Of a stretch of 60,681 nt of DNA, positions 18,025 to 41,866 are shown one piece after another. Origin of the DNA: a virus (taxonomy: Duplodnaviria > Caudoviricetes); IMG/VR virus record IMGVR_UViG_3300037343_000006, positions 1 to 60,681 of that record; one strand, 5' to 3'. Under the pieces are notes generated by a model that was not told the DNA's origin, did no database searches, and saw only the letters and a program-made list of their open reading frames with translations. The position numbers and the translations under genes are program-made. How positions within the stretch are numbered: position 1 is the first letter of the stretch; every line of letters begins with the position of its first letter.

Positions 18025-18048
18025 GTTCTCTCCAGTGTTAGTGAGGCA

Positions 18049-18333
18049 CTAACGTTTTTTGGGGCTGCTCAGTGCACCGCCTGCAGCTCTGTTTTTACTC
18101 TGGCTTTGCACGGTGTACCCGTCCTTGTTCGTGCCGCCTTTAGAGAGCGGCTTCTTATGCGCGATGTCTTTACCCTCACGCTTATCGGCTTTACCGTTAC
18201 CGTTGGCATCCTTGCCGGTCTTGTCCATGGCGCGGCGGGCGCGTTGCCGCTCCATTCGATCAGTATGCTCGCCGCGGGACTTCTGCTGTTCGTACTCTTT
18301 CTTGTACGGACGGGGCTTCTTTGTATATGGCAT
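18049..18333 (-). CDS. Small HNH-like protein
   Basis: 94 aa from MPYTKK; KDIAHKKPLSKGGTN...KNRA is an HNH-like signature; TGATG coupling to the upstream nuclease. Confidence 0.6.
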   Translation of the reverse strand: MPYTKKPRPYKKEYEQQKSRGEHTDRMERQRARRAMDKTGKDANGNGKADKREGKDIAHKKPLSKGGTNKDGYTVQSQSKNRAAGGALSSPKKR

Positions 18334-18998
18334 CAGTTTGCTCCGTTGTGTGGACACTCTAAAACCGGGCAGTGTTTGCGGCACAGGCCGCTCGGCCTCG
18401 GGTTCCATACATCTACATCAAAAGCCTTCTTCATGGCAGCGTGTTTTGCTAGCCACTTGCGCCACAGCTCTTCCTTATTGAACTCAGTGTAGTTTGCTTT
18501 GACAAGGTCGTTGGCTACCACAAACAGCAACCCTGCACGGATGCGCTTAACCTGCGGGAAGTGTGCGAACACTGTCAGTGCCATCAACTCCAACTGGCCC
18601 TTGTCTGCGTACCGCGCGGACTTCCCAGTCTTGTAGTCAATGATCCATGCAAGGTCGCCATCAAGGATGATGAGGTCGGCGATACCACGGAACCAAACGT
18701 CTTTATCAAAGAACCCACACGGAGTTAGGTTTTCAGTAAGTCCCATCTTACGCTCACACAACTTCTCACCTGTGCGGGCTTTGAGTGAGTCGAGCACCTT
18801 GGTCACAAAACTGAACTTCGGCGGGATCGGCTTGTCGTCCCGCATGAACTCCTCGGCAGCTTTGTGGAACTCGGAGCCGTAGCGGATTGCTTCGGTCTCC
18901 GCGAACGGGAACTGCTTGAGGACGTTCACATGGTAGAACTGCTTGGGGCAGGTCTCGAAAGACTTCAGTTTACTGTAGGACCAAGGCGCTGCGCTCAT
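18333..18998 (-). CDS. PD-(D/E)xK nuclease, Cas4/RecB-like
   Basis: SYSKLKSFETCPKQF, GSEFH, GIADL, IIDYKTGK, QLELMA, and a C-terminal Cys cluster. Confidence 0.85.
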   Translation of the reverse strand: MSAAPWSYSKLKSFETCPKQFYHVNVLKQFPFAETEAIRYGSEFHKAAEEFMRDDKPIPPKFSFVTKVLDSLKARTGEKLCERKMGLTENLTPCGFFDKDVWFRGIADLIILDGDLAWIIDYKTGKSARYADKGQLELMALTVFAHFPQVKRIRAGLLFVVANDLVKANYTEFNKEELWRKWLAKHAAMKKAFDVDVWNPRPSGLCRKHCPVLECPHNGAN

Positions 18999-20824
18999 TC
19001 ACATTCTCCGTAGCTTTTTGCTGTTCCTGCTTCGCAGTCCACGGGTAGGCCAGCGGCCCAGTCCGGAACCCAACGCATTGAGTCTTCGATGTATGCCTTG
19101 GCCGCGTCAGTTTCGGCGTCGGGTACGCAGCATACGATAGAGTCATGCACAGTCAACACTACTTTGTATCTCTTGGCAATACGTAACATCTGCTCACCAA
19201 TGATACAGCGTGCTATGGCTTGGCAGACGTTCTCTACCACCTTGCCGCCGTAGATTTTATTGTCTCCCCTGCGTACCTTATAGTAATACTGCGGGCCTTT
19301 TTCTTCCTCGACTGCGAACAGTCCGCTGTAGTACATAGGCAACCCGCTCGGCATAATGAGTGCCTTATTGGCGGGGTCCACTCCGATCACACCAGATTTG
19401 CCGAAGGTCACCTTGTCCCCCTGCGCCATGTAACGCAGCATGACCTGCGCTTCTTTCCACAGGTTGCTGATGTTCCAGTTAGCGTTGCGGTAGATGTTGA
19501 TGACCCGCCGTGCTTCGTCGAAGGGCATGTCAAACCCGAACGTCTTTAGCTGCGCTTGGAACTTGACCGCACCCATGCCGTAGCCCGCACCGAGGATTGT
19601 GGTCTTACCAACAAAGCGCTGGTCCTTGGTCACGTCGTCTACCGCTACACCGTAGATTGTTGACGCCATCTTCTTGTAGACGTCTTCTCTGTTAGTGAAC
19701 GCACTAACAAGGTCTTCCTGCCCAGCCAGCCATGCAAGCACCCGTGCCTCGATCTGTGCGGAGTCGGCCTCAATAACCGTATGCCCTTGGGGCGCGATGA
19801 TCGCCTTCTTCAACGACTTGGCGTTGGGCCCCCTGCTCGGCAGGTTCTGCAGGTTGATCTTATCGTCGCCACCCCAGCGCCCAGTATGCGCAGCATAGTA
19901 ACGCACAGGGACAGGTAGCTTGCCGCGCTCGGCGATGCCGATGAACCGCTGCGTCCTTGTCTCTTCTAGCGTGGACTTGGTGCCCATCCGCGCAGACACG
20001 AGTGCTTGCACCCGATCGTCATCGTGCTCTAGAAGCGCCTTAAACTCTTCGTCATTCTTGGCAAAGGCGAAGGTCTCCTTGCCCGTCGTGGGGCTTACCT
20101 TCATGGGCGGAGCGACGCCTAGCATGTTCAGCAGGAGCGCAAACTTCGGGTTCGACATGAGGTCGCTCTTGTCCTCGATGCCTGCATCGACGAGCAGCTT
20201 CTCCTTGCGTTCCTGCACCGCTACGAGGTGCGCTTCTAGCTGTGACTTGTTTAGCTCTAGCGTCGGCTCAGTAAACATGCGCAGGGTCAGGTCGATCAGG
20301 CGAAGCTCCTTCATCGGGAACTTCTTGGCCATGATCTGAAACAGGCTGTAAGTCAGCTCCACATCGTTGATGCAGTAGTCCCCGTAGGTGCTGAGTTCTT
20401 CTGGTAAGAAGTCCAGACGTCGCTTGCCCATGGCCCGCACTACCTCGGTGCCCTTGACGCCTACGCCATAGCGGTCGGCCACAGCCTTGAGGGATGCAGA
20501 GGCTTCGACCCCGTGCAGTGCACGCGCCATGTGCATCGTGTCGGCTAGCGCCTTGGGGTGAACGTCGAAGTGCCACGACGCTATGGCACCGTCGAACATG
20601 GTGTTGTGCGCCAGCATCATGCTGTTAGCCCAGTCAAACCGCTGCAGATACTTCTTGATCTGCCCCATGGTCCCGCTGGCCCATTCGGGCTCACCGTTGT
20701 TGACCTTAACGCTGACGCCAACGACTTCGAACCGCTCGTCGCGGATATACTCTTCGGTCGTCATCTTCGATAGGGAGTAGTCCTTGTCGTAGTAGGTCTC
20801 CATGTCAAATGTAATCAGGTCCAT
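18995..20824 (-). CDS. polA: Family A DNA polymerase with 3'-5' exonuclease
   Basis: 609 aa from MDLITFDMET; AHNTMFD, HTGRWGG, NLQNLP, DSAQIEARV (motif A), KTTILGAGYG (motif B), TVHDS (motif C). Confidence 0.92.
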   Translation of the reverse strand: MDLITFDMETYYDKDYSLSKMTTEEYIRDERFEVVGVSVKVNNGEPEWASGTMGQIKKYLQRFDWANSMMLAHNTMFDGAIASWHFDVHPKALADTMHMARALHGVEASASLKAVADRYGVGVKGTEVVRAMGKRRLDFLPEELSTYGDYCINDVELTYSLFQIMAKKFPMKELRLIDLTLRMFTEPTLELNKSQLEAHLVAVQERKEKLLVDAGIEDKSDLMSNPKFALLLNMLGVAPPMKVSPTTGKETFAFAKNDEEFKALLEHDDDRVQALVSARMGTKSTLEETRTQRFIGIAERGKLPVPVRYYAAHTGRWGGDDKINLQNLPSRGPNAKSLKKAIIAPQGHTVIEADSAQIEARVLAWLAGQEDLVSAFTNREDVYKKMASTIYGVAVDDVTKDQRFVGKTTILGAGYGMGAVKFQAQLKTFGFDMPFDEARRVINIYRNANWNISNLWKEAQVMLRYMAQGDKVTFGKSGVIGVDPANKALIMPSGLPMYYSGLFAVEEEKGPQYYYKVRRGDNKIYGGKVVENVCQAIARCIIGEQMLRIAKRYKVVLTVHDSIVCCVPDAETDAAKAYIEDSMRWVPDWAAGLPVDCEAGTAKSYGECE

Positions 20825-21038
20825 TTGTGTTCTCCATATACCGCTGCAGTGAGTGCAGGGTTTTCTTTGCTTGATAGTCGTTGGGCTTCGACGAGTTGTT
20901 GCCGATGCAAACAACCCGCCGTCCGTTGTGATGCAGGAAGTAGTGATCGCGCTTCTTCACTACTTCCCACCCGTCATCCAGCTGCTTAATCGTTTCTCGT
21001 ATTAGCGGGTGGACTTGCTTCGGTATTGGGTCGGCCAT
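20805..21038 (-). CDS. Hypothetical protein (weak HicA-like pattern)
   Basis: 77 aa with AAGGAG RBS; GWEVVKKRDHYFL resembles a HicA fold only weakly. Confidence 0.5.
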   Translation of the reverse strand: MADPIPKQVHPLIRETIKQLDDGWEVVKKRDHYFLHHNGRRVVCIGNNSSKPNDYQAKKTLHSLQRYMENTNGPDYI

Positions 21039-21456
21039 CTGCTTCTCCTTGCATCTCAATCAGCCGCTGCAGGTGGTGCACAGCTTTCTGTATGTCCTGC
21101 ATCCCGCCTTTGCTTCGCTCACGTGCGAGGTAGGCGATCGCTACACCCTTGTGGTATCCGCGGTACTCTTCTGGTGTGAGCCATGCTTCCATAGCTTCCC
21201 AAGGCTGCACAGCCATGTCCTTATAATGCGCGCCACCGACTTGGTTGTCTAACGCACTCGGTGTTTTGTTAGTGTGCACACTAACCTCCTCTCTCCAGTT
21301 GGGCGACGAGATACGGGCCATCGTTTGCTCTGCAAACTCCTCGCTAACGTCACAATTAATTCCTACGTCGTACGCCGTGGCCTGCCGGTTCTTCAGCAGG
21401 TATGCCCATACTCTTTCTTCTGTCAGGTTATAGGCCACGTTGTTTTCTCTGCGCAT
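20986..21456 (-). CDS. DUF3310 (SaV / T7 gp1.7-like) domain protein, copy 1
   Basis: QVGGAHYK...QPWE...GVAIAYLAR...KGG.QDIQKAVHHL; start codon uncertain. Confidence 0.75.
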   Translation of the reverse strand: MRRENNVAYNLTEERVWAYLLKNRQATAYDVGINCDVSEEFAEQTMARISSPNWREEVSVHTNKTPSALDNQVGGAHYKDMAVQPWEAMEAWLTPEEYRGYHKGVAIAYLARERSKGGMQDIQKAVHHLQRLIEMQGEADGRPNTEASPPANTRND

Positions 21457-21557
21457 ACCAAATTCCAAATTTCCATAGTAGTTTATAGGGTGACCACTTC
21501 GGGGCCATGACCAACGCCATGTGGCACCACATCTCAACTTCAAAATACTTCTGTGAT

Positions 21558-21866
21558 TTACTCGATGCCATCTGGCACCGCCTTTGTTAGTGTATCCCTA
21601 ACATGTTTCATGTTGTCCTCATTGACTACTAACGCCACCCCGCCGGTTTCGGCGATGTGCTTAAGGTTCTTTTCTTGCAAGGGTGTCGGCTTGTTCTTGC
21701 CTGCCTTGCACTCAATCCCGAAGAACGTTCCTCGATAACAGCCCACGATGTCGGGTACGCCGCCGGCACCATAGCCTCCAGTCACGGGGTAGAAGTAGTA
21801 AGCACCCATGTCCTTAAGCTGCTGCACCACGACCTTTTTAACTTTAGCTTCCGGCGTCATTGCCAT
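21558..21866 (-). CDS. VRR-NUC nuclease / Holliday junction resolvase-like protein
   Basis: TPEAKVK, GVPDIVGC, FFGIECKAGKNKPTPLQ. Confidence 0.85.
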   Translation of the reverse strand: MAMTPEAKVKKVVVQQLKDMGAYYFYPVTGGYGAGGVPDIVGCYRGTFFGIECKAGKNKPTPLQEKNLKHIAETGGVALVVNEDNMKHVRDTLTKAVPDGIE

Positions 21867-22218
21867 TCGCGGCCCCCTCTGCATGTGCGTCGCGCACCAC
21901 TTCCGTGATGTATTCGGCCACTGATGCGCAGCCGATTTTGTCCGCCTCAACCGCCAGCCAGTCCAGCTGGTCCGGTGTTAGCCCAAGCAGGATGTCGCTC
22001 ATAAACCCCAACTTAATCTTACGGTTGGCAAACAGGTATTTTACCCGCTGTCGCGGTGTTGATTTATTCTTGCGTGGCGGGACCATGCCCGCCTTGCGCG
22101 CATCGACGACAGCCCTGACGACCTTGGTATACCCGAAGCCGGTGGCTAGTTGTATCGCAGCGTGGCTGTGACCTGCCATGTGCAGTTCAGCAACGCGTCT
22201 CGTGTCATCACCCATCAT
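21844..22218 (-). CDS. Hypothetical protein, possible HTH
   Basis: 124 aa from MMGDD; ATGA overlap; ELHMAGHSHAAIQLATG is an HTH-like segment. Confidence 0.55.
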   Translation of the reverse strand: MMGDDTRRVAELHMAGHSHAAIQLATGFGYTKVVRAVVDARKAGMVPPRKNKSTPRQRVKYLFANRKIKLGFMSDILLGLTPDQLDWLAVEADKIGCASVAEYITEVVRDAHAEGAANGNDAGS

Positions 22219-22406
22219 GGCCGTGCAACCGGACGCAGGAACGGCACGCCTGTATCGCGGCAGTATGCGTCCACCTGTTGGCCCCAAAGCGCCTCCAATG
22301 CTTCGACCATCGCAGGCATCTGGTCGCACACTGCAACCGTTTTGCCCGTGATGTGGCCGACTTCCATGCTGCCGATTGCGAAGATGATTAGGTAAATGCT
22401 GGTCAT
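22215..22406 (-). CDS. Small hypothetical protein with hydrophobic N-terminus
   Basis: 63 aa (MTSIYLIIFAIG...), AGGAG RBS, ATGA overlap. Confidence 0.55.
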   Translation of the reverse strand: MTSIYLIIFAIGSMEVGHITGKTVAVCDQMPAMVEALEALWGQQVDAYCRDTGVPFLRPVARP

Positions 22407-23313: not shown

Positions 23314-23359
23314 TTTGGTTCTCCTTTGTTATGTCTCAGGCATAATGCCGACCGCTTAT

Positions 23360-23524
23360 TCAGTCTCTCCCAAGAAACTCATTGTGTCCTTGGCCCACAT
23401 GCAGAACGTTCGCCAGCTTGGCCTCCAGTTCCTCGATGCGGTCGGCTTGTGCTAGCATCACTCTCCGCACGTCCGTGATGCCATCAGCCAGACGCTCAAC
23501 GCTCATTCGGTCAATGCTGGTCAT
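23360..23524 (-). CDS. Small hypothetical protein (54 aa, not in the ORF track)
   Basis: MTSIDRMSVERLADG...ADRIEELEAKLA; ATGA overlap with the upstream stop. Confidence 0.45.
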   Translation of the reverse strand: MTSIDRMSVERLADGITDVRRVMLAQADRIEELEAKLANVLHVGQGHNEFLGRD

Positions 23525-23712
23525 GTCTCTAATCTCCATTCCATGTTTCTGTTTCTGATCTCCTCCAGCAGTTCATCCGCCTTCGGGTTGTCGTGGCGCA
23601 GGCAGGTCTTGTAGCAGTTGAGCAGGTACTCATCGCCCAACGTATCAATCCAGACGGGCCCATCGTGGCTGAACCACTGACCTCGGCCCACACGTTCTTG
23701 TGGGTCACTCAT
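23521..23712 (-). CDS. Hypothetical protein
   Basis: 63 aa from MSDPQ; GGAGG RBS; TAATG coupling. Confidence 0.55.
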   Translation of the reverse strand: MSDPQERVGRGQWFSHDGPVWIDTLGDEYLLNCYKTCLRHDNPKADELLEEIRNRNMEWRLET

Positions 23713-23948
23713 TACATCCCTCCCAACTCTACGATTAATATACCTGCCAAAAAGACGCAGAATATAACGTATGCCCACACATGCAGCGCGTCGATGGGTG
23801 CCTCGGCCCGCCTAATCTGGCGACGCTTACGGGACTGCGCTCGCAGCATGCGCTCTTTCTCGGGGCGGGACGTAGCCGCCCATCCGGGCCCTTGGTACGG
23901 ACTTATCATCTTGTTCAATCGTTCGAGGTCGTGTGGGTCTTTCTTCAT
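23712..23948 (-). CDS. Small membrane-anchored protein
   Basis: 78 aa from MKKDP; GGAG RBS; C-terminal transmembrane-like segment VWAYVIFCVFLAGILIV. Confidence 0.55.
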   Translation of the reverse strand: MKKDPHDLERLNKMISPYQGPGWAATSRPEKERMLRAQSRKRRQIRRAEAPIDALHVWAYVIFCVFLAGILIVELGGM

Positions 23949-24012
23949 GGCGCTCTCCGCGGTAACTGGTTTCGGTTTGTGGGTGGGGGCCGAAGCCCCT
24001 GTTAGTGTCGCA

Positions 24013-24393
24013 CTAACAAAACACCCAATATGTTTCGTCGTTGATACGCCGACCCACACCCTCGACAGGTTCAGTCGGTGGGGTACAGCTCAGCATACTG
24101 AGTAAGGTAATCTTCTCTCGCATCCAGTCCGGAAGCGATTCGATACCATCGTAGTTACCATCTACTATCGCGTCAACACTTTCTAGGCCAATACATGCTA
24201 CACGAACATGTCCGATCACACCGTCTACAGTAACACGGTATATGTTATCATCAGGTGGTAGCTTCTCGGTATCGCCGACCCAATACGCCGCGCGCTGGCT
24301 ACACCTGTACCAGCCATGTGCTTGGACTAGGTCGCGGTATTTTATAAACTTCATACCTCTGTAGTCAGCGAAATCTTTTTCACCTAGCCACAT
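24013..24393 (-). CDS. Hypothetical protein
   Basis: C-terminal LPDWMREKITLLSML...VEGVG resembles the C-terminus of the neighbouring 288-aa ORF (LPEHILGRLAVMSMV...VPGVG); start uncertain. Confidence 0.6.
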   Translation of the reverse strand: MWLGEKDFADYRGMKFIKYRDLVQAHGWYRCSQRAAYWVGDTEKLPPDDNIYRVTVDGVIGHVRVACIGLESVDAIVDGNYDGIESLPDWMREKITLLSMLSCTPPTEPVEGVGRRINDETYWVFC

Positions 24394-25246
24394 AAAACAT
24401 CCCCTCTGTGTGTTTGAAGCCCACGCCGGGCACGAACGCGCCGTCCTCCACCATACTCATCACTGCCAACCGACCAAGTATATGCTCGGGCAAGTCGTCA
24501 TAGTATGTCTCGATCTCACCCATCATGGGCCAGTGGTTCTCGGCTTTGTCCACGGGCACAACATCGAACCGCTGCTTACCCCCACCCTGCGTGATCGAGA
24601 CAAACAGCATGTTGTAGGGCTGCTGTGCGTTATCATTCTCGGCCCCCAGTGCGAAATACTCGGTGAGCCTGTCGGTCAGTGTCGTGTCGAAAAACGTATG
24701 CTCGCTTGTTATGAGGCGCTTGAGTTCTACTAGCACAGGGGCGTCCTTCCTGTTATAGAGGCCTGCACCAAATAGTCTGACCTCTTCGCTCGTCATCACC
24801 TCGCGCGCTGACTTCCGCATCTGGCTGATGGCATCACGGACGTGTGAGTACGTGTGCTCCACCAACTCCTTCGGCGATAGCCTGCGCAGAAACTTCTTGG
24901 CGCTCTTCACGGCGACACTACATTTAGAACTCATCACCATGGTATGCTGCGTGGAGCCGCTGCTGTATTTACCGTTCACAATGTTGCGAGCACGCACGGC
25001 GTAGACGTTGCCGCCCTTGCCGTTCTGGCTGAAGTTACCGAACCCTATGGCACCCATGGCGATGTGGTCCTCTGGCATATAGACCCAAGCCCAGTTGTTA
25101 TTACGTAGTGTCGTGCGGCATCCGGGGATCGCCGCCTCTACATCTCGGCGAAAGTCACGCAGCACAGCGTTATACGGGACTTGCTCCTCCCGCTTGTCGT
25201 GCTCTTCCAATAGCTGGCGTACGTATGCTGCTTCCATCTTACTCAT
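24380..25246 (-). CDS. Hypothetical early protein
   Basis: 288-aa ORF in the leftward operon. Confidence 0.65.
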   Translation of the reverse strand: MSKMEAAYVRQLLEEHDKREEQVPYNAVLRDFRRDVEAAIPGCRTTLRNNNWAWVYMPEDHIAMGAIGFGNFSQNGKGGNVYAVRARNIVNGKYSSGSTQHTMVMSSKCSVAVKSAKKFLRRLSPKELVEHTYSHVRDAISQMRKSAREVMTSEEVRLFGAGLYNRKDAPVLVELKRLITSEHTFFDTTLTDRLTEYFALGAENDNAQQPYNMLFVSITQGGGKQRFDVVPVDKAENHWPMMGEIETYYDDLPEHILGRLAVMSMVEDGAFVPGVGFKHTEGMFYVAR

Positions 25247-25250
25247 CGCT

Positions 25251-26300
25251 TCATCCCTTCACTTCTTTTACCAAGCCAAGCTGCTTGTTGACCCAGCGGT
25301 TAAACGCTGCCTTGACCTGCTTCACGTCGTCCTCGTCCAAGCATGGCGTAAGAAGTTCAGACTGCTTCACAGCCACATAGGCTAGCTGCAACCGCATCGG
25401 GTGCGCTTCATCCGCCATGATCTGACGTGATAGTTTTGGTTCGAGCATATTCGCTAGGCTCCATGTGTTGCTAACCTCAGTGCCTGTCTCCTTACCCCAA
25501 TCGGCTAAGCCGTCACGCAAGCTACGCTCATATTGGTAGTCACGCGTCGGCATGAGCGGGCCAACAGCTAGTACCCAGTCACGGAACGCTTCGACGTGCG
25601 GCTTTAACTTGGCCTTGGTCTTGAGGTCCACACGCTTCTTCGGAGGCACAGGGACTGGCTTGCCACCACTGACAAACTCCCACAGATAGCCACGCCCTCC
25701 CATTATGTCAGTGCGCTTGAACGTGAGCGACGCCCCGTCGTCCTTGACTCGCTGCCATTCGAGCCATTTGGGGGTATTGCCACCACGCACCGTAGCGAGT
25801 TCTTTTTGTGTGTTCTCCCACACCACGCGCGGCACTGTTTTACCCTTAGCGAGATAGTATGTGCCGCCTGCAGCCTCGATGAAGTGCTTGCCGTTGCGGT
25901 TACGGAACCACACGCCTGCTGGTGTATGTCTATATAAGAACGCATACCGCATGTTGTGGGCACCATTGCCTGCCCCGTTACGGATTGTGACCGTCTCGGT
26001 GCCGTCCTTGTGCTTGCGCCACACGATCGGTGCGTAGAACGCCATGTCTTTGAGTGTCGGCGTGTATGCGACATCCCCCCTGTAGAGCCACTTGCCGAAG
26101 TACTCGTCGCCATATTGGAAGCCATCAGACAGCGCGTAGCAGTTGTCACTGACCTTGGCGATGCGCTCCCACTTGCGCCCACGATCACCGATTGGTCGTA
26201 TGTCTTTACCTGCGTTGGCTGCACCGCCCAGTGGCTTGGTGCGCTCATACCACGATTCGACGTCAGCGAACGTGTTGAAGCTAGAGTAAGTAAGTGCCAT
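25251..26300 (-). CDS. Hypothetical early protein
   Basis: 349 aa; AAGGAG RBS directly after a palindrome. Confidence 0.7.
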   Translation of the reverse strand: MALTYSSFNTFADVESWYERTKPLGGAANAGKDIRPIGDRGRKWERIAKVSDNCYALSDGFQYGDEYFGKWLYRGDVAYTPTLKDMAFYAPIVWRKHKDGTETVTIRNGAGNGAHNMRYAFLYRHTPAGVWFRNRNGKHFIEAAGGTYYLAKGKTVPRVVWENTQKELATVRGGNTPKWLEWQRVKDDGASLTFKRTDIMGGRGYLWEFVSGGKPVPVPPKKRVDLKTKAKLKPHVEAFRDWVLAVGPLMPTRDYQYERSLRDGLADWGKETGTEVSNTWSLANMLEPKLSRQIMADEAHPMRLQLAYVAVKQSELLTPCLDEDDVKQVKAAFNRWVNKQLGLVKEVKG

Positions 26301-26330
26301 GTTATCTCTCCTTGGTTTGTTAGTGTCGCA

Positions 26331-26741
26331 CTAACCGAAGTTGTGTGTGAGGCGGCGCTCGATGCCGCACATGTCGAATAAGAAACTCATCATCTCCCCG
26401 CTGGGATCAGCCTTCTTCTCAGTGGTTTCGATGTCGCTGAGTTCCTCGCCGATGCGATAGTATAGTGAAGCGAACGGATGCCCACGTTCCTGTGCGAAGT
26501 TAGACGCCACGTCGATCAGGTGCTCGATACCCTGCACGTCGTCGTCGTTGTCATACCACTTGACATCTTCGGCTGCGTAATACAGCACGGGGTATTCACC
26601 CGCGTCGTAGTTCTTCCACCTCGCAGGTGCGAGGTTGTTGTCCGTCACACGCTGGTCCATCACATAGACTGCCAACACCTCGTCGCGTTGTGCCTTGTTC
26701 TTGAACGCCACAGCGATCAACACGTCACTTCTGTATCCCAT
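26331..26741 (-). CDS. Hypothetical early protein (MGYRSDV family)
   Basis: 136 aa; GGAG RBS; DVKWY and RIGEE..DIE motifs. Confidence 0.7.
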   Translation of the reverse strand: MGYRSDVLIAVAFKNKAQRDEVLAVYVMDQRVTDNNLAPARWKNYDAGEYPVLYYAAEDVKWYDNDDDVQGIEHLIDVASNFAQERGHPFASLYYRIGEELSDIETTEKKADPSGEMMSFLFDMCGIERRLTHNFG

Positions 26742-26848
26742 GTTTCTTCTCCATATCTTTTTCTGTTTCGGTGTTAAGTGGTCTGGTGGGCTGCTTGCTA
26801 CCCACCGAGCCACACTTGTTATTACGACTAGGCCTACCTGCCGCCACT

Positions 26849-28078
26849 TCACATATCCCTCGATTCAATGTGCACGGTCTTGCCCACGTCAGGGCTGGCC
26901 CGCTCGTTGTCCAACACAGTCCACAGCACAGGGTGGTGCCACTCACCCCAGCCACCGAACAGATAGCCGTCGGTCAGCACGATCACTGCCTGCGCCTTGA
27001 TCTGTTTGTCTGCGATGTATTGTGGCACACAGCGCACGTCGGTGCCGCCGCCGCCCTTGGGCTTGGTAGACTGCACGATGTTGTCCGCTTCGGCCCCTTC
27101 ATACCGCTCGTCACCTGCCACGCGCGTGTCCCAATACAGGATGCGAATAGCCTCGGGGTGCACCGTGTCCGCCACCGATTTGATTTCGGCGAGGAAGGCA
27201 CCTAGTTCACGCGCACCGATGCTGCCTGACGTGTCGATAGCCACCACGATCTCACCGATACTCTCGCTGATACCACTCGGCAGGTAGATACCCGCGCCGA
27301 TGTAACGACGGTTGGGCCTGCGCCATGTCGAGTAGTCATTGCCCTGACAAGTTGTTTGCACGAAGTCACGCAGCACCTCGCGCCAGTCCACTTGTGGCTG
27401 CAACAGTTCAACCATGTCGCGGTCAGCACCACTGCCCAGCTTGCCAGCAGCCAGCGCACCTTGCCGCACAGCCTCGTCGATCTCACGCGCCAAGTCCCGC
27501 TGTTCTTCTGCGGTCATGTCGGACGCATCATCCCAGCCGTGCTCATCGAAGCCAGTTCCCGTGTTAGTGCCGCCACTAACACCACTGCCCTGCCCCTGCC
27601 CCTGCCCCTGCGGGGGCGGGTTCTTCTTGAGGTCGTTGAACACCTGCGCGCTGTCCCACCCACGATACTTGTCGTCGTAGCACCCGATGCTCAGCTTGCC
27701 GTCCATGGTGGCGAACAGGTCAGCGTTGTCGTCGACCAGCTTACCGTTGATGACGTAGTCACAGGCCATGTTGGCCAGCTGCGCGTTCTCCTTATAGAGA
27801 TGTTGCCACGTGGTGAGGTGGCGATAGAGTTTGTGATACACCTCGTGCAGCACAAGGAAGCGCAGCTGTCTGTCGTTGAGGTCGGCGATGAAGTCAGCGC
27901 CATACACCTCGTCCTTGCCGTTGGTATATGCAGTCGGACAACGCCACGCGTCATGCTCGACACGTCGTGCTCCGATCATCAGCACACCTACCAGCGCCCT
28001 GTATTTGAGGTTAGCCATGATGTCGATCACAGCCTTCTGCACCCTCTGGTCTGGCGTTAAGTTACCCATCATCAGCAT
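26849..28078 (-). CDS. Metallopeptidase-vWA fusion (DUF2201-like)
   Basis: PTAYTNG, LHEVYH (HExxH), ANMACDYVIN; MIDAS motif IDTSGS, GGGGTD, VLTDGY. Confidence 0.85.
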   Translation of the reverse strand: MLMMGNLTPDQRVQKAVIDIMANLKYRALVGVLMIGARRVEHDAWRCPTAYTNGKDEVYGADFIADLNDRQLRFLVLHEVYHKLYRHLTTWQHLYKENAQLANMACDYVINGKLVDDNADLFATMDGKLSIGCYDDKYRGWDSAQVFNDLKKNPPPQGQGQGQGSGVSGGTNTGTGFDEHGWDDASDMTAEEQRDLAREIDEAVRQGALAAGKLGSGADRDMVELLQPQVDWREVLRDFVQTTCQGNDYSTWRRPNRRYIGAGIYLPSGISESIGEIVVAIDTSGSIGARELGAFLAEIKSVADTVHPEAIRILYWDTRVAGDERYEGAEADNIVQSTKPKGGGGTDVRCVPQYIADKQIKAQAVIVLTDGYLFGGWGEWHHPVLWTVLDNERASPDVGKTVHIESRDM

Positions 28079-28079
28079 G

Positions 28080-28400
28080 TTATTGTGCTCCCATATCTGA
28101 CCCGCCGAACAAGCGGGTCCACCAGCGTTTTAATGTCGACGTGGTAGTATCACTAACCACGTGTTTAGTTGCGTCCTCACTTGTTAGTGGCACACTAACA
28201 GTCTCGTATCTTTTCGGCTGCTTGTGCAGGCCCGTGACGTAGATGCGCTGCTGCACCGCGCCTCTCGAGCGGTTAAGTGCTTTGGCAATATCCCACGTGT
28301 CAAACCCTGCATGATACATGGTAAGCAATGTGTCAGTGTGCTCGTCCGTCCATGCTGTGCCGGTGTTACTCGGCGTCTTGCGCTTGTATCTCTTAGCCAT
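28080..28400 (-). CDS. GcrA/Myb-like HTH protein
   Basis: WTDEHTDTLLTMYHAG...IAKALNRSRGAVQQRI resembles the GcrA N-terminal HTH; GAGGAG RBS. Confidence 0.55.
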   Translation of the reverse strand: MAKRYKRKTPSNTGTAWTDEHTDTLLTMYHAGFDTWDIAKALNRSRGAVQQRIYVTGLHKQPKRYETVSVPLTSEDATKHVVSDTTTSTLKRWWTRLFGGSDMGAQ

Positions 28401-28411
28401 TGTTTCTCTCC

Positions 28412-29503
28412 TCACTTCTTATCTGCTGCAAACAGGTAGTTGTTCTGCATGGCCCACGCCGTGAACTTCTTGTTGGTCATCACCATAGCCTGCTTGGAAT
28501 ACTTGGGAGCACGCACACCATTGGCGAACATACCCTGCGCTTCCTTGTCGAGCCGCTGCATATATTCCATCCACGCATCGAGCCAGTCACGCTCCAATGA
28601 TGCAAGTGTCCGATACACCACCATACAAATAGCTGCGGCAGAGGCAGGCACTAGTGCATTGAGCGGGTCTTTCTTGATGCTCTCCAGCGAGGGCAGCTGG
28701 TCAGCCAGACTGACAAAGGCCATCAGGTCCATCGCCGCACGGTCACCGATCGTGCCCATGAGCGCCGCCGTTGTAGTCTGCTGGTCGATCAGGTGGCGTT
28801 CCTTGAGAACATCCGAGGCAGCTTCGAGCGAGCGAGGTGTGACGAACGCTGCACGCTGTGCCTTGGGGTGGTAAATATATGGGTTCTCCTCGGGGTCTTT
28901 GATGTCCTCGAAGCCAAGGAACAGCTGCGGGTTGTCCTTGCACCAGCCCAACAGGGTGTGGTCCACGCCGTTGTTGATGCCCCACTCGATCCACTCCATG
29001 TTGCTCGGCTTGCGCGCAGTCACCACGGTGATGCGGTTACGTGCATGAGGTGGCAACAAGTCACCGACACCCTCGGCACCGAGGTTAGTGGTGGCGAACA
29101 CAACGCTGTCAGGATGCAGCTCGTAGCTACCGATCTTGCGCTCCAGCATGAGACGTAACAGTGCGTTCTTCACGGCGGGATTAGCCTTGCCATACTCGTC
29201 GATCATCAGGATAATTGGCCCGCCATGGTGCGCACCCAACTCCTCGTTGGTGGCATAGGTCACGTATCCTTTCCCGCTCGTCTTCATTATCTCAGGCAGC
29301 GTGATGTCACCCAAGTCCTTGGTGGTGCAGTCGAAGTAACACGCGGTGTGTTGTGGTAGATCGTTGGCGAGCGTGCGCAGCAGGCTGCTCTTGCCTGTGC
29401 CCATGTGGCCTTGCACCAGTGTGGTGCGCTTGTGACCCGTCGCCTTGATGAGTGCTGCGATCTGGTCGAGGTTGATGTGATACATCTGTTGTGCGGTAGT
29501 CAT
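28412..29503 (-). CDS. MoxR-type AAA+ ATPase
   Basis: GHMGTGKS (Walker A), LMIDEYGKA (Walker B), FATTN, RNR, TPRS. Confidence 0.85.
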   Translation of the reverse strand: MTTAQQMYHINLDQIAALIKATGHKRTTLVQGHMGTGKSSLLRTLANDLPQHTACYFDCTTKDLGDITLPEIMKTSGKGYVTYATNEELGAHHGGPIILMIDEYGKANPAVKNALLRLMLERKIGSYELHPDSVVFATTNLGAEGVGDLLPPHARNRITVVTARKPSNMEWIEWGINNGVDHTLLGWCKDNPQLFLGFEDIKDPEENPYIYHPKAQRAAFVTPRSLEAASDVLKERHLIDQQTTTAALMGTIGDRAAMDLMAFVSLADQLPSLESIKKDPLNALVPASAAAICMVVYRTLASLERDWLDAWMEYMQRLDKEAQGMFANGVRAPKYSKQAMVMTNKKFTAWAMQNNYLFAADKK

Positions 29504-29576
29504 GTGTAGTTCTCCTTGGTTGTGTTAGTGGCGGCACTAACGCCGCCTGTTTTGTTATGGTTCACTAGCCGACATC

Positions 29577-30458
29577 TTAGATGTCGAGCGAGGGCAGGGC
29601 CTTGATCGCTTTGTCCACGTTGCGCTTAGTCTCGCGGCGCAGCCACTCGTCCTCACGCAGTGCATCGGGTGTCACACCACGCATGGCTTCTTCGAGGTTG
29701 TCTGCCATGGCAGCCATCTGCATGTCGTTGGCCACGTTACACACACGCATCAGGTCGATCATCTCGGCCACGTTCTCCACGAGTGTGTCACGAAACACCT
29801 TCTTCTGTTCGTGGTCGGCGTAGTCGAGCCGCTCGCTCATGCGGGACAGCGCGTCGTATGTCCGCTTCCACACGTCCTTCATGGCGACACCCAACTGTGT
29901 GGTGTAGTAGTTCTGGTAGTGCGCGCGCAGTTCCTCGGCTGCGTCGTTGGCAATGTCGATGCGGAAGTCACCTGCATCGGGCAGCGGGATGTAAGTCAGC
30001 CTGAAGCTAAACTTGTTATGCAGGCTCTCGGTCGTGGGGTAGTCGGCGCGGATGAACAGGTCGCCCAGCTTTGTCTGTGCCTGCATGATCTCCCAGTCGT
30101 ATGCGTTCAGGAACAGCGCCACGAGCCGCCCGTATTCTGCCTGCAACGCGGTCATCTGCGCGTGATACTTGAAATACTGCGCTGTAGGCAGCAGGCGCAG
30201 CCCCGTGTCGGACCACGGCATGGTCATGGAATAGTGTGCGTTTCGCAGGTTGGCTGTGAATTTCTGCACTGCGCTCAATTCGGCGCAGTCGCCCAGCAGC
30301 TTCTTGTTCACGTTAGCTACGCCGTCAGCCGCGTAGTTCTGCGCTGTGATGTCCTTGGATGCGCGCTTGTCCAGCTTGCGTCCAGTCCACGTTGAGATGC
30401 TGAGTTCGACCAGCATGGATGACGACGAGATCGTCGGGGTATTAAAATCATTAGGCAT
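29577..30458 (-). CDS. DUF3150-like protein
   Basis: 293 aa; LVELSISTWTGRKLD, KKLL, TMPWSDTGLRLLP, DYPT...KFSF; upstream of the AAA/vWA genes. Confidence 0.65.
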   Translation of the reverse strand: MPNDFNTPTISSSSMLVELSISTWTGRKLDKRASKDITAQNYAADGVANVNKKLLGDCAELSAVQKFTANLRNAHYSMTMPWSDTGLRLLPTAQYFKYHAQMTALQAEYGRLVALFLNAYDWEIMQAQTKLGDLFIRADYPTTESLHNKFSFRLTYIPLPDAGDFRIDIANDAAEELRAHYQNYYTTQLGVAMKDVWKRTYDALSRMSERLDYADHEQKKVFRDTLVENVAEMIDLMRVCNVANDMQMAAMADNLEEAMRGVTPDALREDEWLRRETKRNVDKAIKALPSLDI

Positions 30459-30537
30459 CGTGTTCTCTCTCCAGTGTTAGTGCCGCCACTAACAAGTGAC
30501 GGCTGGTTTGTTGTAGTGTGTTTTTGTGGTATATCTT

Positions 30538-30566
30538 ACTATACCACAACGTCGTCCTTATCGCAA
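30538..30566 (-). promoter_or_regulatory. Sigma70-like leftward promoter overlapped by a GTGGTAT-N8-ATACCAC inverted repeat
   Basis: TTGCGA-N17-TATAGT with an extended TG on the minus strand; inverted repeat at 30526-30547. Confidence 0.6.
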
Positions 30567-30808
30567 ATTTGGTGGACCCTGCACTGATCGTGCAGCGTGA
30601 GGTGTATGTCTGCCCGCTCGGCTTTCATGATTACGCGCTCGGTATCCCTGCACCACCAACTCTCGGTCCGCCCGCCCGCCTCGTAGACCGCGAGAAAAGG
30701 CGCGAATGGGTCAAACGTATCTTCCCATATATCCAACGGGCCCGCCTGCCCACGAAACACAAGGGGCCATAGGTTTGTCTCGGCGCGCACGTTCCATCGC
30801 GGCGTCAT
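30539..30808 (-). CDS. Hypothetical early protein
   Basis: 89 aa, AAGG RBS, in the leftward operon. Confidence 0.5.
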   Translation of the reverse strand: MTPRWNVRAETNLWPLVFRGQAGPLDIWEDTFDPFAPFLAVYEAGGRTESWWCRDTERVIMKAERADIHLTLHDQCRVHQICDKDDVVV

Positions 30809-30809
30809 G

Positions 30810-31013
30810 TTATCGCACCTTCTGGTTAAGTTGTTTCAGTTCGGCTTTCTTGTTCACCCGCGTGTAGCCCTGCTTTGGCAGGGGGACGATGCACCATGAG
30901 GTGCGCATCGCGATAGCGGCTTCCTCGCCGCATGGCAGACAGGTCTGGTAGCCCAGCGCGCGCCGCGCAGCGGGATAGGTGTCACCGCAGGTGAGGCAAT
31001 AACAATCAAGCAT
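30810..31013 (-). CDS. C4 zinc-finger protein, DksA/TraR-like finger
   Basis: 67 aa; CLTCGDTYPAARRALGYQTCLPC; AAGGAG RBS. Confidence 0.6.
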   Translation of the reverse strand: MLDCYCLTCGDTYPAARRALGYQTCLPCGEEAAIAMRTSWCIVPLPKQGYTRVNKKAELKQLNQKVR

Positions 31014-31212
31014 CTTCTTTCTCCTTGTTAGTGGCGGCACTAACAGCCTCGTCGAAGCTGAAACCCGCATGCACGTCGCACCCGATGCCGTAGGCCTGAT
31101 CGACCTTGATGTTGGCACGGTAGAGTGCAGTGAGTTGCTCGTCGGTGAGCGGGCAGGTGGTGAACCCATAGAACGCGAAGTCGCGCATGATAGTTGCGAT
31201 ATACCATTTCAT
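31006..31212 (-). CDS. Hypothetical early protein
   Basis: 68 aa, TAAGGAG RBS. Confidence 0.55.
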   Translation of the reverse strand: MKWYIATIMRDFAFYGFTTCPLTDEQLTALYRANIKVDQAYGIGCDVHAGFSFDEAVSAATNKEKEDA

Positions 31213-31222
31213 CTTCTTCTCC

Positions 31223-31504
31223 TTACTTGTTCTCGCTGTATGACCAGCGTTCTCGTGTTAGTGGGTTGGTCTTGTTAAATGCACCGAAGGTGCGGGACTC
31301 GGCCTCGTCGCGGTTCCACTCTTTGTGCTTGGCACGGGGGGCTGTCTTGACGCCTGCTTTGGCCCGCAGGATGAACGCTTTGCCTTGGGCTTCTCGGGCG
31401 ACAGCGGCACGATAGTGGGTGGCGCACAGGGTGCGCAGCTCTTCTTTTGTCAGGCCCGCGAGGGGTCGCTGGTTCTTGTCTTGTGATAACATCTTTTCAC
31501 ACAT
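31223..31504 (-). CDS. Hypothetical early protein
   Basis: 93 aa; first ORF downstream of the 31581-31609 promoter. Confidence 0.5.
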   Translation of the reverse strand: MCEKMLSQDKNQRPLAGLTKEELRTLCATHYRAAVAREAQGKAFILRAKAGVKTAPRAKHKEWNRDEAESRTFGAFNKTNPLTRERWSYSENK

Positions 31505-31580
31505 CGGGTGGTGTTCCTTGTTAGTGCGTCACTAACAGTGGCGCGGGGTGTTGCAGGGGAGTATTTGGTGGTATGATTTA

Positions 31581-31609
31581 ACTATACCACGCCTATCAGG
31601 CTATGTCAA
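31581..31609 (-). promoter_or_regulatory. Near-consensus sigma70-like early promoter overlapped by a GTGGTAT-N9-ATACCAC inverted repeat
   Basis: TTGACA-N17-TATAGT with an extended TG; inverted repeat at 31568-31590. Confidence 0.75.
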
Positions 31610-31776
31610 ATGATGGTGAATGGTGGTGAATAGAGGTAAGGGGACGTATGTTCTTGGATGTTCTCACTTCTAATAGGTCGCGAACGCGCAGTGCCTTGAT
31701 TTCATTGAAATGTTCGGATGTTCGTTTTTTAGTTAAAATAGTATATACCTATTAAAAACCCTTCTTGGATTCAGCG

Positions 31777-31960
31777 ATTTGCGAACATGCGGGGGGACAG
31801 CTGCGCTGGGATGTATTAACTGCATTCTCGACAATTTGCGAACATTTGTTTGTTTTCAATGACTTACAAAAAACCATTTGCGAACATTTGTTTGTTTTCA
31901 ATGGGTTACAAAAAGGCCATTTTGCGAACATAGAGAACATTGTGGAATATCAATGGGTTA
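31777..31960. repeat. Iteron-like repeats (TTTGCGAACAT x4, ~42-bp period) with IHF-like boxes
   Basis: Copies near 31777, 31834, 31876 and 31920; TTTCAATgacTTA, TTTCAATgggTTA, and TATCAATgggTTA (31948-31960) resemble WATCAANNNNTTR; AT-rich. Confidence 0.65.
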
Positions 31961-32006
31961 CGCGGACACGCACCATCAGATGATACTTTACGATAGGCGC
32001 TTTTTT

Positions 32007-32291
32007 GGCTTGACAACCAGAAGAAAAACCTCCATACACTACGTGTATGGAGTCCAGCACGCCACTCAACCCCCAGCTGTGACACTCGACGCTCCCCTAA
32101 GAACTGGTTTCGGTATGTTAGTGTCACACTAACAAAATAGGGGCTTGACAACCGCAGGTAAAAGTTCGATACACGGAGTGTATCGAATCCTACAGCACAC
32201 TCAACCACGCCGCGAACGACTTATCGCGCGGTGCTGCGGCTCGACGCTCCTCTAAGAACTGGTCTCAATTTGTTAGTGTGACACTAACAAA
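32007..32291 (+). repeat. Two degenerate cassettes: GGCTTGACAACC - 10-bp hairpin - CTCGACGCTCC.CTAAGAACTGGT - palindrome
   Basis: Units 32007-32136 and 32142-32291; hairpins at 32030-32052 and 32165-32187. Confidence 0.75.
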
Positions 32292-32294
32292 GAT

Positions 32295-32450
32295 GGCGTA
32301 ACGGCAGGCACAAAAAAAGGCCCGCCCGCCGAAGCGGATGGGCCAGTGTCACGGGGTCATAAGTAGGAAGGCGTAACGGCAGGCACAAAAAAAGGCCCGC
32401 CCGCCGAAGCGGATGGGCCAGTGTCACGGGGTCATAAGTAGGAAGGCGTA
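32295..32450 (-). terminator. 75-bp tandem duplication, each copy containing an intrinsic terminator
   Basis: Minus strand reads GGCCCATCCGC-TTCG-GCGGGCGGGCC-TTTTTTT twice (period 75). Confidence 0.85.
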
Positions 32451-32498
32451 GGTGATGGCGAAGATCGCCACCACCCCGAAGATGTCAGACAGTTTCAC
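32424..32498 (-). CDS. Putative 24-aa hydrophobic membrane peptide
   Basis: GTGA overlap with the stop of 32495-33013; MKLSDIFGVVAIFAITYAFLLMTP; ends just before the terminator. Confidence 0.4.
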   Translation of the reverse strand: MKLSDIFGVVAIFAITYAFLLMTP

Positions 32499-33013
32499 TT
32501 GACCATCTTGTTCAGATCGCGAAGCGCCTTAAGAAAGTCGGCCGCGTCGAATGTCAGATCTTCCGCGCCTTGAACCAGCTTTTCGATGCTCTCTATCATC
32601 GCGCGGATCTTGTCCTCTGCCGACTTAGGCTGCTGTGGTGCACGATCATCCGCCTTGCCTTCACGCTTTTCAAGGCCGCGCTTGAAGTCGTTACGGCGCG
32701 CACCGATCTGCTGCTGCGCATAGCGCTTCTCCGCCTTGTCCGCCTCGGGCAGCGCCTTTGTTGGTGCTGCTAGAAGCTTTTGCGTGCGGGCCGTGAACCC
32801 CGCCACGATCGCCGCGTTTATCGCTTCGAATTGCTCAGGCGATGCAGTCGATCCGCCGTCTTTAGACTTGGGCGATACGAAGTCAGATGATCGCATGCCC
32901 GCCGCGACTAGCGCGTCGATGCTAGACTGCATCTTGCGTGATGCGCCTTCTACGGCAGACACGGCGGTAGTGATCGCGGCAGCGGCAGCAGTTGTGAGTG
33001 TAATGTTAGACAT
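32495..33013 (-). CDS. Hypothetical protein, first gene of the leftward arm
   Basis: 172 aa, GAGG RBS, Ala/Lys-rich and helical-looking; followed by terminators. Confidence 0.75.
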   Translation of the reverse strand: MSNITLTTAAAAAITTAVSAVEGASRKMQSSIDALVAAGMRSSDFVSPKSKDGGSTASPEQFEAINAAIVAGFTARTQKLLAAPTKALPEADKAEKRYAQQQIGARRNDFKRGLEKREGKADDRAPQQPKSAEDKIRAMIESIEKLVQGAEDLTFDAADFLKALRDLNKMVK

Positions 33014-33113
33014 GGGGTTTCCTCTCGGGTTATATCGGTCTTAATTGTTTGCCGATATCTAATAGGTAACACGTTATGACATGACACGGCAAGAGATAAC
33101 GCCGAACGGTAAC

Positions 33114-33268
33114 GCCTGCTAGGCGTAGCGCATCACGTCTTGGCTTGTTAGGGCAGCACTAACAAAACAGCCAGATCGCGACCCTACCCGCCTGCTAAGC
33201 GTAGCGCATCACGTCTTGGCTTGTTAGGGCAGCACTAACAAAACAGCCAGATCGCGACCCTACCCGCC
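33114..33268. repeat. 76-bp tandem duplication containing a GTTAGGG-cag-CACTAAC palindrome
   Basis: Period 76, one mismatch (CTAGG vs CTAAG). Confidence 0.85.
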
Positions 33269-33496
33269 CCCTACCCCCCGCAATAGGATTTAGAGTCCCA
33301 CCACTTCCTATGTATTACTAATCCAGAAGAATAAATCCGCACCCCCCACGTCACTCAGAAAACGACCATAAAAAATTTTTTATTATCAACGGGTTAGCGT
33401 TTAGCTACCCAGCGGGCTCGGCGCGCTCAGGGAAACACCCCCCGTCATGGGACCCACGGGCCCCTCGGTGCAGAAATATCGCTACGCTACGGAGTC

Positions 33497-41788: not shown

Positions 41789-41866
41789 GTTTTGTTATCG
41801 TGTATTCTACCTACATTCCTGACAGCCGCATAGTGTGGCTGACTTGACCCACGACAGGAGATACAC

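Follow-up and report, generated by a model that had tools for sequence, protein, structure and literature searches.

In the present study, we analysed the whole 60,681-bp IMG/VR record IMGVR_UViG_3300037343_000006 (hereafter, the window), which is rated complete and belongs to an uncultured phage of the Caudoviricetes whose DNA is present in salt-lake metagenome sequencing runs. Its genes lie in two arms, divergent from about 33.3 kb and convergent at about 11.7 kb, and the leftward arm, which holds the early and replication genes, carries 16 copies of the palindrome GTTAGTG-N3/4-CACTAAC. On balance, these palindromes appear to be operator-type sites in duplex DNA for a phage-encoded, dimeric, sequence-specific protein whose specificity has diversified together with the sites. 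The most probable reading is a regulon of many operators with co-evolving specificity, under a new candidate family of regulators. The finding suggests a phage regulator, not described before, that evolves in step with its many targets. Observed directly were the sites themselves, their confinement to one arm and conserved order, the selection on their nucleotides, the lineage-specific types and a co-varying protein segment. New here are the catalogue of palindrome types, the comparison of a DNA site with an RNA hairpin, and a candidate for the reader.

A pattern search of the window detected 13 exact copies, compared with none in 100 of 100 shuffled sequences. When up to two mismatches were allowed, just three copies were added (21586, 33147 and 33223), each with a single mismatch, and none was found in the whole record outside positions 18037 to 33239; the expectation from shuffling was 0.19 for the N3 form and 0.12 for the N4 form. 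These results confirmed the initial annotation, which had counted 13 perfect and three single-mismatch copies over the same interval. It had also assigned the palindromes to the early arm only. This held in that no copy lies elsewhere, but only two thirds of the arm is covered, because it runs to 11726 with no site in its last 6.3 kb (SNF2 helicase to primase). Half of the copies (8/16) lie within 29524-33239, and the spacing is N4 in six of the 16. The contexts described earlier were likewise borne out: six palindromes end 12-20 nt 5' of the next start codon, close to a ribosome-binding site (18037, 26319, 29524, 30476, 31027 and 31520), three provide the TAG stop of the upstream open reading frame (ORF; those ending at 18049, 24013 and 26331), and the spacers GCGG and CCGC are both found in either orientation. 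Seven copies are fully intragenic, including those in PolA (19691) and in the vWA/DUF2201 gene (27563), and all seven sit in the sole stop-free frame (GTT AGT G..), which avoids the TAG and TAA hidden in the motif.

The palindromes are real, strongly selected and clade-wide. An exact-pattern scan of IMG/VR matched at least 118 stretches; among the matches listed, 20 contained three to nine copies, and these 20 stretches encode relatives of the early-arm proteins at a G+C content of 41 to 55%. All five complete relatives (62-67 kb) carry 7-10 copies, every one within a single stretch of 8.5-22.8 kb. The motif is thus clustered in one arm and conserved among relatives rather than evenly spread, in keeping with what the initial annotation had expected. 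Syntenic copies were found ahead of the SNF2 and AAA genes, at the stop of the homologue of ORF 24393-24013 and at the DUF3150 5' end, and in these copies the arms are kept while flanks and spacers have diverged. The site at 18037 has a syntenic copy in loci L015, L042, L061, L074, L102, L125, L127 and L128; that at 24001 is syntenic in nearly all relatives spanning the junction; and that at 29524 is syntenic in every lineage examined, each with its own palindrome. A search of the literature found no description of this clade's palindromes, with supplementary data, which may cover Rhizobium phages, lying outside that search. No cultured phage exceeded 33% identity to the vWA protein, megablast of the early arm against cultured phages gave no match, and the 44 of 64 kb scanned of Pseudomonas phage KPP25 contained no repeated palindrome.

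To survey the clade, we took 80 of the 323 IMG/VR relatives identified by the vWA protein and typed 81 loci around the vWA gene from de novo palindrome counts at shared junctions. The same junctions were found to hold at least 11 palindrome types, all of 15-19 bp: type A in 43 loci, E in 9, A3 and C in 6 each, A2, B, D and J in 3 each, G in 2, and F, H and I in 1 each, with 6 weakly typed. Half-sites other than that of the window include GTTAG[T/G]C (9 loci), GTTAGG(C) (3), TTTAGGG (6), TTTACG[C/G] (3) and GTAGTG(A) (9), and five more types occur in 1-3 loci each. Several types are one step apart, and A, A2, B, C and D differ stepwise. In L159 and L170, which carry different types, most proteins are 84-92% identical; at an aligned junction of this pair the flanks are largely base-identical, and the 16-17 bp site is precisely swapped for the other type. 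A distant cultured relative, Rhizobium phage RHph_TM3_14A (L129, MN988472.1 11621-53537; 36% PolA identity), has its own family, GTTAC[C/T]-N5-7-[G/A]GTAAC; the pattern GTTAC-N6-10-GTAAC matched 23 times in 41.9 kb, and some 20 of these matches lie in the early arm. The initial annotation had also suggested recombination sites that shuffle early cassettes, to be examined by comparing indel breakpoints; the sites proved to be syntenic between conserved core genes and not at breakpoints. Readings as Chi-like sites, restriction sites or mobile elements were rejected, since the half spacing is fixed, the sites are enriched and not avoided, and they are replaced in place rather than present or absent.

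The change of motif type between close phages at unchanged positions suggests that the reader is phage-encoded. As described below, a phage protein family changes alongside, so that the idea of a phage protein as reader, raised in the initial annotation, gained support. An alternative is that the sites are borrowed from a host regulator, such as CtrA or another conserved factor. A GcrA-like ORF (28415-28080, minus strand, 111 amino acids (aa)) reaches the gathering threshold of the Pfam family of the cell-cycle regulator GcrA (E 7e-6) and hints at an alphaproteobacterial host, and the CtrA box given in the initial annotation (TTAA half-sites exactly 7 bases apart) differs from the N3 form by a single base in each half-site. 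However, that half-site occurs in none of the 16 sites and the N4 spacing is wrong in six of them. Moreover, the exact motif persists in relatives of 39-59% G+C, and relatives with mostly 84-92% protein identity carry wholly different palindromes. A host regulator is thus hardly credible as the reader, and the likeness to the CtrA box lost its weight in a motif that varies by lineage.

The placement of the copies was informative about what is selected. In many relatives, a syntenic copy, translated as V-S-x-x-L-T, lies 6-8 codons past a start codon that has a strong Shine-Dalgarno sequence; the counterpart of site 30476 in other relatives is such a copy, 6-8 codons into the DUF3150 gene. Because some sites are intragenic or lie past start codons, a promoter for the next gene is unlikely, and judged from sequence, the palindrome is unlikely to be either the promoter or the processing site of the gene that follows. 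The PolA copy is present in 10 of 41 aligned PolA rows, all of type A. It arose by amino-acid changes, from T-Q-A-F-A-N to V-S-A-F-T-N, and its nucleotides are identical in 10 lineages except in the spacer, with no synonymous variation outside the spacer. In RHph_TM3_14A, two of the three frames of the motif are free of stops, and intragenic copies are more frequent: about half of the roughly 20 palindromes lie inside genes, 0.3-2.4 kb apart, and several contain the Shine-Dalgarno sequence of the gene that follows or sit 1-2 codons past a start. Taken together, the start-codon offsets, the PolA copy and the Rhizobium frames suggest that selection keeps the copies at some given density over the arm, sited where coding tolerates them.

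Such placement could also fit DNA sites with a role other than transcription, in loading, nicking, priming, recombination or the pacing of DNA entry, where a given density along the first part of the genome would be needed. The coating, protection or paced entry of first-injected DNA suggested in the initial annotation gained no support. Consistent with this alternative, the sites keep no fixed distance from gene starts, the new PolA site fills an otherwise 3.2-kb gap, the Rhizobium phage shows the spacing given above, conserved PD-(D/E)XK and VRR-NUC nucleases are encoded in the arm, and the giant DarB-like virion protein is strongly diverged between L159 and L170. On the other hand, no nuclease, primase or giant protein was tied to motif type, and the palindromes have no orientation, unlike the usual priming or translocation signals. 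The densest copies lie in the control region and directly 5' of a second conserved element, beside promoter-like elements, and the best sigma-70-like matches in the arm lie about 45 nt upstream of the copies at 31536 and 30493. Based on these results, we consider a role outside transcription improbable.

We then compared a site in duplex DNA with a hairpin in RNA. In the window and its relatives, the arms are invariant, the spacer sequence is free and its orientation flips relative to transcription, and 10-11 bp separate the centres of the half-sites. The symmetry of types D, E, I and J often reaches a centre of 0-2 nt, where hairpin pairing is impossible. In L146, pair 6 is non-complementary in six of eight sites, and half-sites vary independently. 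The 81 loci gave 433 non-redundant sites, 303 of them with full complementarity; mismatched pairs numbered 149, of which 13 are G·T or T·G on the sense strand, compared with 23 A·C or C·A, so that no G·U excess was detected. The mismatches did not show the pattern of compensatory or wobble changes expected of a structured RNA, and changes in both arms between lineages fit a dimer equally well. Because the arms are fixed, the spacers flip, the half-sites vary independently and G·U pairs are not in excess, the conservation pattern appears to favour a dyad-symmetric site in double-stranded DNA read by a symmetric dimer. These results supported the preference of the initial annotation for a DNA-level site over a strand-specific RNA loop. 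They argued against its suggestion of extrudable hairpins, given half-sites that vary independently and a symmetry that extends into a centre that cannot pair.

The corresponding alternative at the RNA level is that the palindromes are hairpins in early polycistronic transcripts, to which an RNA-binding protein of the phage, different in each lineage, would bind; it might act in N/boxB-like antitermination ahead of terminator-like hairpins, in control of translation by the ribosome-binding site, or in protecting processed mRNA ends. As RNA, the sites would fold at -5 to -13.3 kcal/mol. The six sites near start codons, and the sites of relatives that begin 18-24 nt after one, are placed where translation could be controlled, and site 24001 and its syntenic copies directly precede a GC-rich hairpin. 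The gene of the candidate reader described below comes first in the early arm, with two terminators after it, an arrangement that resembles the layout of lambda N. Against this, invariant stems with free, flipping loops are the reverse of most hairpin-protein recognition, and the mismatch spectrum and the L146 sites do not bear the marks of pairing. In several types, a complementary pair is conserved beside a centre of 1-2 nt. A coding-strand T-run 3' of the hairpin, as in an intrinsic terminator, was found at 0 of the 16 sites, and the single terminator-like match over a site (29522-29547, overlapping site 29524) lies on the opposite strand. We regard recognition in RNA as unlikely, although it deserves more weight than the other alternatives to operators in duplex DNA.

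The palindromes could also be promoters in hairpin form, used by a phage RNA polymerase that escaped recognition and comparable with the N4 virion RNA polymerase, whose promoters have a short stem and a 3-nt loop and lie upstream of early genes. A 7-bp stem with a 3-4 nt loop resembles the shape of an N4 early promoter, many copies lie just 5' of ribosome-binding sites, and lineage-specific promoters are typical of phage polymerases. In addition, the window encodes two giant virion proteins with no assigned function (2322 and 2119 aa). However, an RNA polymerase domain was found in no ORF scanned, and the giants lack the DxDGD motif and have no PDB sequence match. Unlike N4, the window has far more copies, some of them intragenic, with half-sites that vary independently; syntenic sites lie past start codons and in mid-gene, and sigma-70-like promoters lie upstream of two sites. 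Hairpin promoters are thus a very improbable explanation.

For the operator sites proposed here, we tentatively regard the product of the first early gene (33013-32495) as the most likely reader. Among the proteins listed as candidates in the initial annotation, this one was favoured by the comparisons across palindrome types. In types A, A2/B, C, E, H and J, and with weaker support in D, a homologue is the leading gene of the early arm, with family links at an hhalign probability of 82% and E 1e-5 for A2/B, E 3e-6 for H, E 0.004 for J and E 0.05 for D. Within type A, residues 100-110 form the most conserved 11-residue window, with an identity of 0.90 compared with 0.59 protein-wide (19 distinct rows), and only 25% of these residues are kept in five non-A rows. 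The motif Q-Q-Q-[I/V]-[G/N]-A-[R/K] is kept in 22 of 22 family loci with the half-site GTTAGTG, out of 28 loci in total, and the segment differs in the lineage with a relaxed seventh position, in both sub-forms of type E, and in types C, A2/B, H, J and D. Prediction of a homodimer gave a score of 0.82, compared with 0.00 for the best of three controls; in calibration, 20 of 30 solved homodimers and one of 23 solved monomers reached the mark of this tool. In the model, the partner pLDDT (predicted local distance difference test) does not fall below 84, contacts agree between runs to 91% or more, and residues 96-105 lie outside the predicted dimer interface.

Other proteins of the arm were considered as readers. 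The HTH_17 protein (16047-15727), proposed in the initial annotation, was rejected, as its identity follows no type association (57.3 for same-type and 60.0 for different-type pairs). The GcrA-like protein, also proposed there (28400), occurs in 19 loci only and in a variable slot between the AAA and vWA genes, and is not universal in the clade. The slot between ORF 24393-24013 and the VRR-NUC gene is often empty, and both were rejected. The DUF3150 protein showed the largest drop between same-type and different-type pairs at a vWA identity of 55-70% (67.0 versus 50.6); it was rejected because it is 86% identical in L159 and L170, its type-specific signal is not localised, and its model (pLDDT 74) has no fold match. 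ESM Atlas matches for DUF3150 and ORF 26300-25251 were unnamed viral clusters only, and the PDB profile searches for a reader (A2-A6) gave nothing meaningful.

Several observations weigh against duplex operators read by the first early protein. The hairpins will form in transcripts regardless, given their folding energies; a 1-bp variation in spacer length is uncommon for a rigid dimer; and the symmetry reaches the centre only partially in some lineages. The candidate has no recognisable DNA-binding fold and gave no Pfam, PHROG or PDB sequence match. On each of the six gene trees, the palindrome types come close to monophyly (10-12 changes, against a minimum of 8), so that the correlation of segment and type could be plain phylogeny, and gene trees cannot separate the candidates. 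In the closest different-type pair, L159 and L170, the candidate-reader region lies outside the coverage of L159, and the genes that have diverged are the block 26300-24013, the primase and the giant virion protein. The identity of the ORF 24393-24013 family falls from 75.1% within a type (n=70) to 52.8% between types (n=5), which makes it a second candidate reader on sequence grounds; its model has a core pLDDT above 85 and no fold match with E below 0.4. In addition, the profile scans detected neither an integrase nor a classical repressor, which leaves the stoperator analogy drawn below without a lysogenic setting.

We infer binding and, less specifically, an effect on transcription whose sign could be either repression or activation/antitermination. 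In the mechanism proposed, the first early gene, separated from the rest of the arm by two terminators, would be transcribed first. Its product would accumulate, dimerise and bind the palindromes in duplex DNA. At promoter-proximal copies, in the control region, 5' of three copies of the second conserved element (G-A-N-N-CCAGTT, see below) and in leaders 3' of sigma-70-like promoters, initiation would be occluded or modulated. Copies between and within genes would act as roadblocks, in the manner of stoperators. The combined effect would probably be that transcription of the early and middle arm by host RNA polymerase is gated, timed or shut off, and the late arm, which has no copies, would be unaffected. 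Because palindromes differ from lineage to lineage, a regulator would be limited to genomes of its own kind. A more specific proposal, which we hold as doubtful, is an undescribed family of master regulators in an apparently lytic clade: a helical, homodimeric first early product with no detectable helix-turn-helix, whose short Gln/Arg-rich recognition segment would have split, along with 10-20 palindromic operators per genome, into at least 11 mutually exclusive specificities.

The nearest functional analogue appears to be the stoperator network of the Cluster A mycobacteriophages. As the relevant sections of the published accounts describe them, stoperators of the L5 gp71 type are tens (20-30) of copies of one short site per genome, of which few lie in promoters and most lie between or within genes, where the bound repressor blocks elongation (PMC6550527), and their consensus is lineage-specific and co-varies with the repressor (PMC6550527, PMC9283540). 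In the same sections, they are 13-bp asymmetric sites, oriented with transcription and present in both arms, and their reader is a monomeric repressor of temperate phages (PMC6550527). The present system shares the many non-promoter copies (16 in the window, seven of them inside ORFs, and 7-10 in each of the five complete relatives). Its site types, at least 11, are also lineage-specific, and a segment of the first early protein follows type, a correlation that phylogeny may explain. It differs in that the sites are 15-19 bp palindromes with spacers in both orientations in one arm only. It also differs in that 82 ORF queries against Pfam or PHROGs returned no integrase or known repressor, and the candidate reader belongs to an unrelated family without a recognised fold. 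The SAS and ESAS repeats of Cluster K are described, in the sections concerned, as lying before a subset of genes, as kept across subclusters and as inverted repeats with a variable spacer, with function and reader unknown; SAS is a 13-bp asymmetric repeat at the ribosome-binding site, and the ESAS arms are imperfect 17-bp repeats with spacers of 4-13 bp (PMC3203893). On that description, conserved repeats associated with gene starts and a variable spacer are common to both systems, whereas the window has no asymmetric repeat at the ribosome-binding site, has exact arms of 6-8 bp and has many intragenic copies.

Plasmids offer a further comparison. On IncP plasmids, the ParB-family protein KorB has about a dozen operators, which are short palindromes, some of them intragenic, with no constant distance to a promoter; the dimer that reads them can act at a distance. 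Other ParB-family proteins likewise have scattered palindromic sites. Unlike KorB, no ParB-like domain was found in the ORFs scanned here, the sites belong to a phage early arm, and the specificities are lineage-specific.

If the proposed regulon is correct, a large uncultured clade, for which a single gene identified 323 relatives in IMG/VR, controls the genes of its early and middle phases by way of an operator network that is dense and evolves fast. To our knowledge, such networks have so far been known mainly from temperate actinobacteriophages. Under the more specific proposal of a master-regulator family, lytic phages would have an equivalent of immunity groups, with an early programme that answers to its own regulator only, and the specificity of the regulator could decide the outcome of co-infection between relatives. 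The natural pairs of palindrome and protein segment would provide a ready specificity series for the joint change of a DNA-binding specificity and all its sites, and could serve as orthogonal regulator and operator parts. The role of repeated palindromes at gene junctions in many phage genomes would also become testable.

Table 1. Palindromes, candidate reader gene and other features of the window.
Feature	Coordinates	Strand	Context
Palindrome, perfect N3	18037..18053		Carries TAG stop of ORF 18408-18049; 12 nt before SNF2 helicase start
Palindrome, perfect N4	19691..19708		Inside PolA, translated V-S-A-F-T-N
Palindrome, perfect N4	21268..21285		Inside ORF 21543-20986 (DUF3310)
Palindrome, 1 mismatch, N3	21586..21602		Near end of VRR-NUC-like ORF 21950-21558
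Palindrome, perfect N3	24001..24017		Carries TAG stop of ORF 24393-24013; followed by GC hairpin and second element 23973-23965
Palindrome, perfect N3	26319..26335		Carries TAG stop of ORF 26852-26331; 18 nt before next start
Palindrome, perfect N4	27563..27580		Gly/Gln-rich linker of vWA/DUF2201 gene
Palindrome, perfect N3	28183..28199		Inside GcrA-like ORF 28415-28080
Palindrome, perfect N4	29524..29541		Between DUF3150 stop and AAA ATPase ribosome-binding site; 20 nt before start
Palindrome, perfect N4	30476..30493		A/C-rich leader; 17 nt before DUF3150 start; about 45 nt 3' of sigma-70-like match
Palindrome, perfect N4	31027..31044		13 nt before start of 67-aa zinc-finger ORF 31013-30810
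Palindrome, perfect N3	31520..31536		15 nt before start of ORF 31504-31223; about 45 nt 3' of best sigma-70-like match
Palindrome, perfect N3	32117..32133		Immediately 5' of second element 32111-32103
Palindrome, perfect N3	32272..32288		After tandem terminators; immediately 5' of second element 32266-32258
Palindrome, 1 mismatch	33147..33163		Divergent control region; copy 1 of two 76 bp apart, identical flanks
Palindrome, 1 mismatch	33223..33239		Divergent control region; copy 2 of 76-bp repeat
First early gene, 172 aa, candidate reader	32495..33013	-	Type-specific segment at residues 96-110
Second conserved element (G-A-G-A-CCAGT...)	32258..32266	-	5 nt after site 32288-32272; terminator-like hairpin 32187-32165 follows
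Second conserved element	32103..32111	-	5 nt after site 32133-32117; terminator-like hairpin 32052-32030 follows
Second conserved element	23965..23973	-	After site 24017-24001 and GC hairpin
Two intrinsic-terminator-like hairpins, 75 bp apart	32321..32413	-	Between first early gene and first downstream palindrome
Leftward arm	33013 to 11726	-	Early and replication genes
Rightward arm	33557 on, through record ends, to 11635		Large terminase, portal, major head protein, tail-fibre-like proteins, amidase, two giant proteins
Giant DarB-like virion protein, 2322 aa	4667-11635		
Repeat-rich protein, 2119 aa	55255-60681 joined to 128-1060	+	Frame kept across record ends

A stretch of 127 bp is repeated at both ends of the record. 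Among the sequencing runs listed for 23400-33350, none was an RNA run. The leftward arm begins with small early genes, the trio of DUF3150, AAA ATPase and vWA-peptidase genes and several unknown genes, continues with a VRR-NUC-like nuclease, DUF3310 proteins, PolA and a PD-(D/E)XK nuclease, and ends with the SNF2 helicase, the HTH_17 protein and a DUF927 primase-helicase. The trio (29577-28412-26849 region) is universal across the clade. Two giant proteins are encoded in the rightward arm, one of 2119 aa, which spans the record ends and has no family or PDB match, and the DarB-like protein of 2322 aa. The 82 ORF queries, in which several ORFs were run against both Pfam and PHROGs, returned no RNA polymerase, integrase or known repressor family, and absence from a profile search is not proof of absence. 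The Rfam Mu-gpT-DE RNA was detected at 41817-41869 (plus strand), directly 3' of the major head gene, with 68.9 bits compared with a gathering score of 49. The adjacent ORFs 25246-24380 and 24393-24013 (minus strand) share the C-terminal motif L-P-x-W/E..K-x-A-V-L-x-M .. V-G-x-R .. Y/F-W/Y-V, and together with ORF 26300-25251 they form a block that is swapped or diverged between otherwise close relatives.

The second conserved element, G-A-N-N-CCAGTT, is often extended by CTTAGAG..GCG..CGCC and lies 2-15 nt 3' of one to four palindromes per genome. It is identical across all palindrome types, with 158 non-redundant matches on the early-gene strand and 49 on the opposite strand in the 81 loci, and candidate roles for it are those of a promoter, of a processing signal or of the 5' portion of a small RNA. 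Between 32288 and 32025 (minus strand), two tandem units lie in a region with no ORF start, each consisting of a palindrome, the second element, 60-85 nt and a terminator-like hairpin, followed by a repeated TTGTCAAGCC. These units may be small RNA genes; they gave no Rfam or tRNA match. Directly 3' of the first early gene, a 75-bp tandem duplication (32321-32480) yields the two identical terminator-like hairpins. In the divergent control region (33130-33300), a 76-bp tandem repeat was found, in which each unit contains a variant palindrome with AAAAC-N11-GACCCTACCCGCC after it on the plus strand, and the same flank also adjoins the control-region palindrome in L009, L020, L055, L084 and L095.

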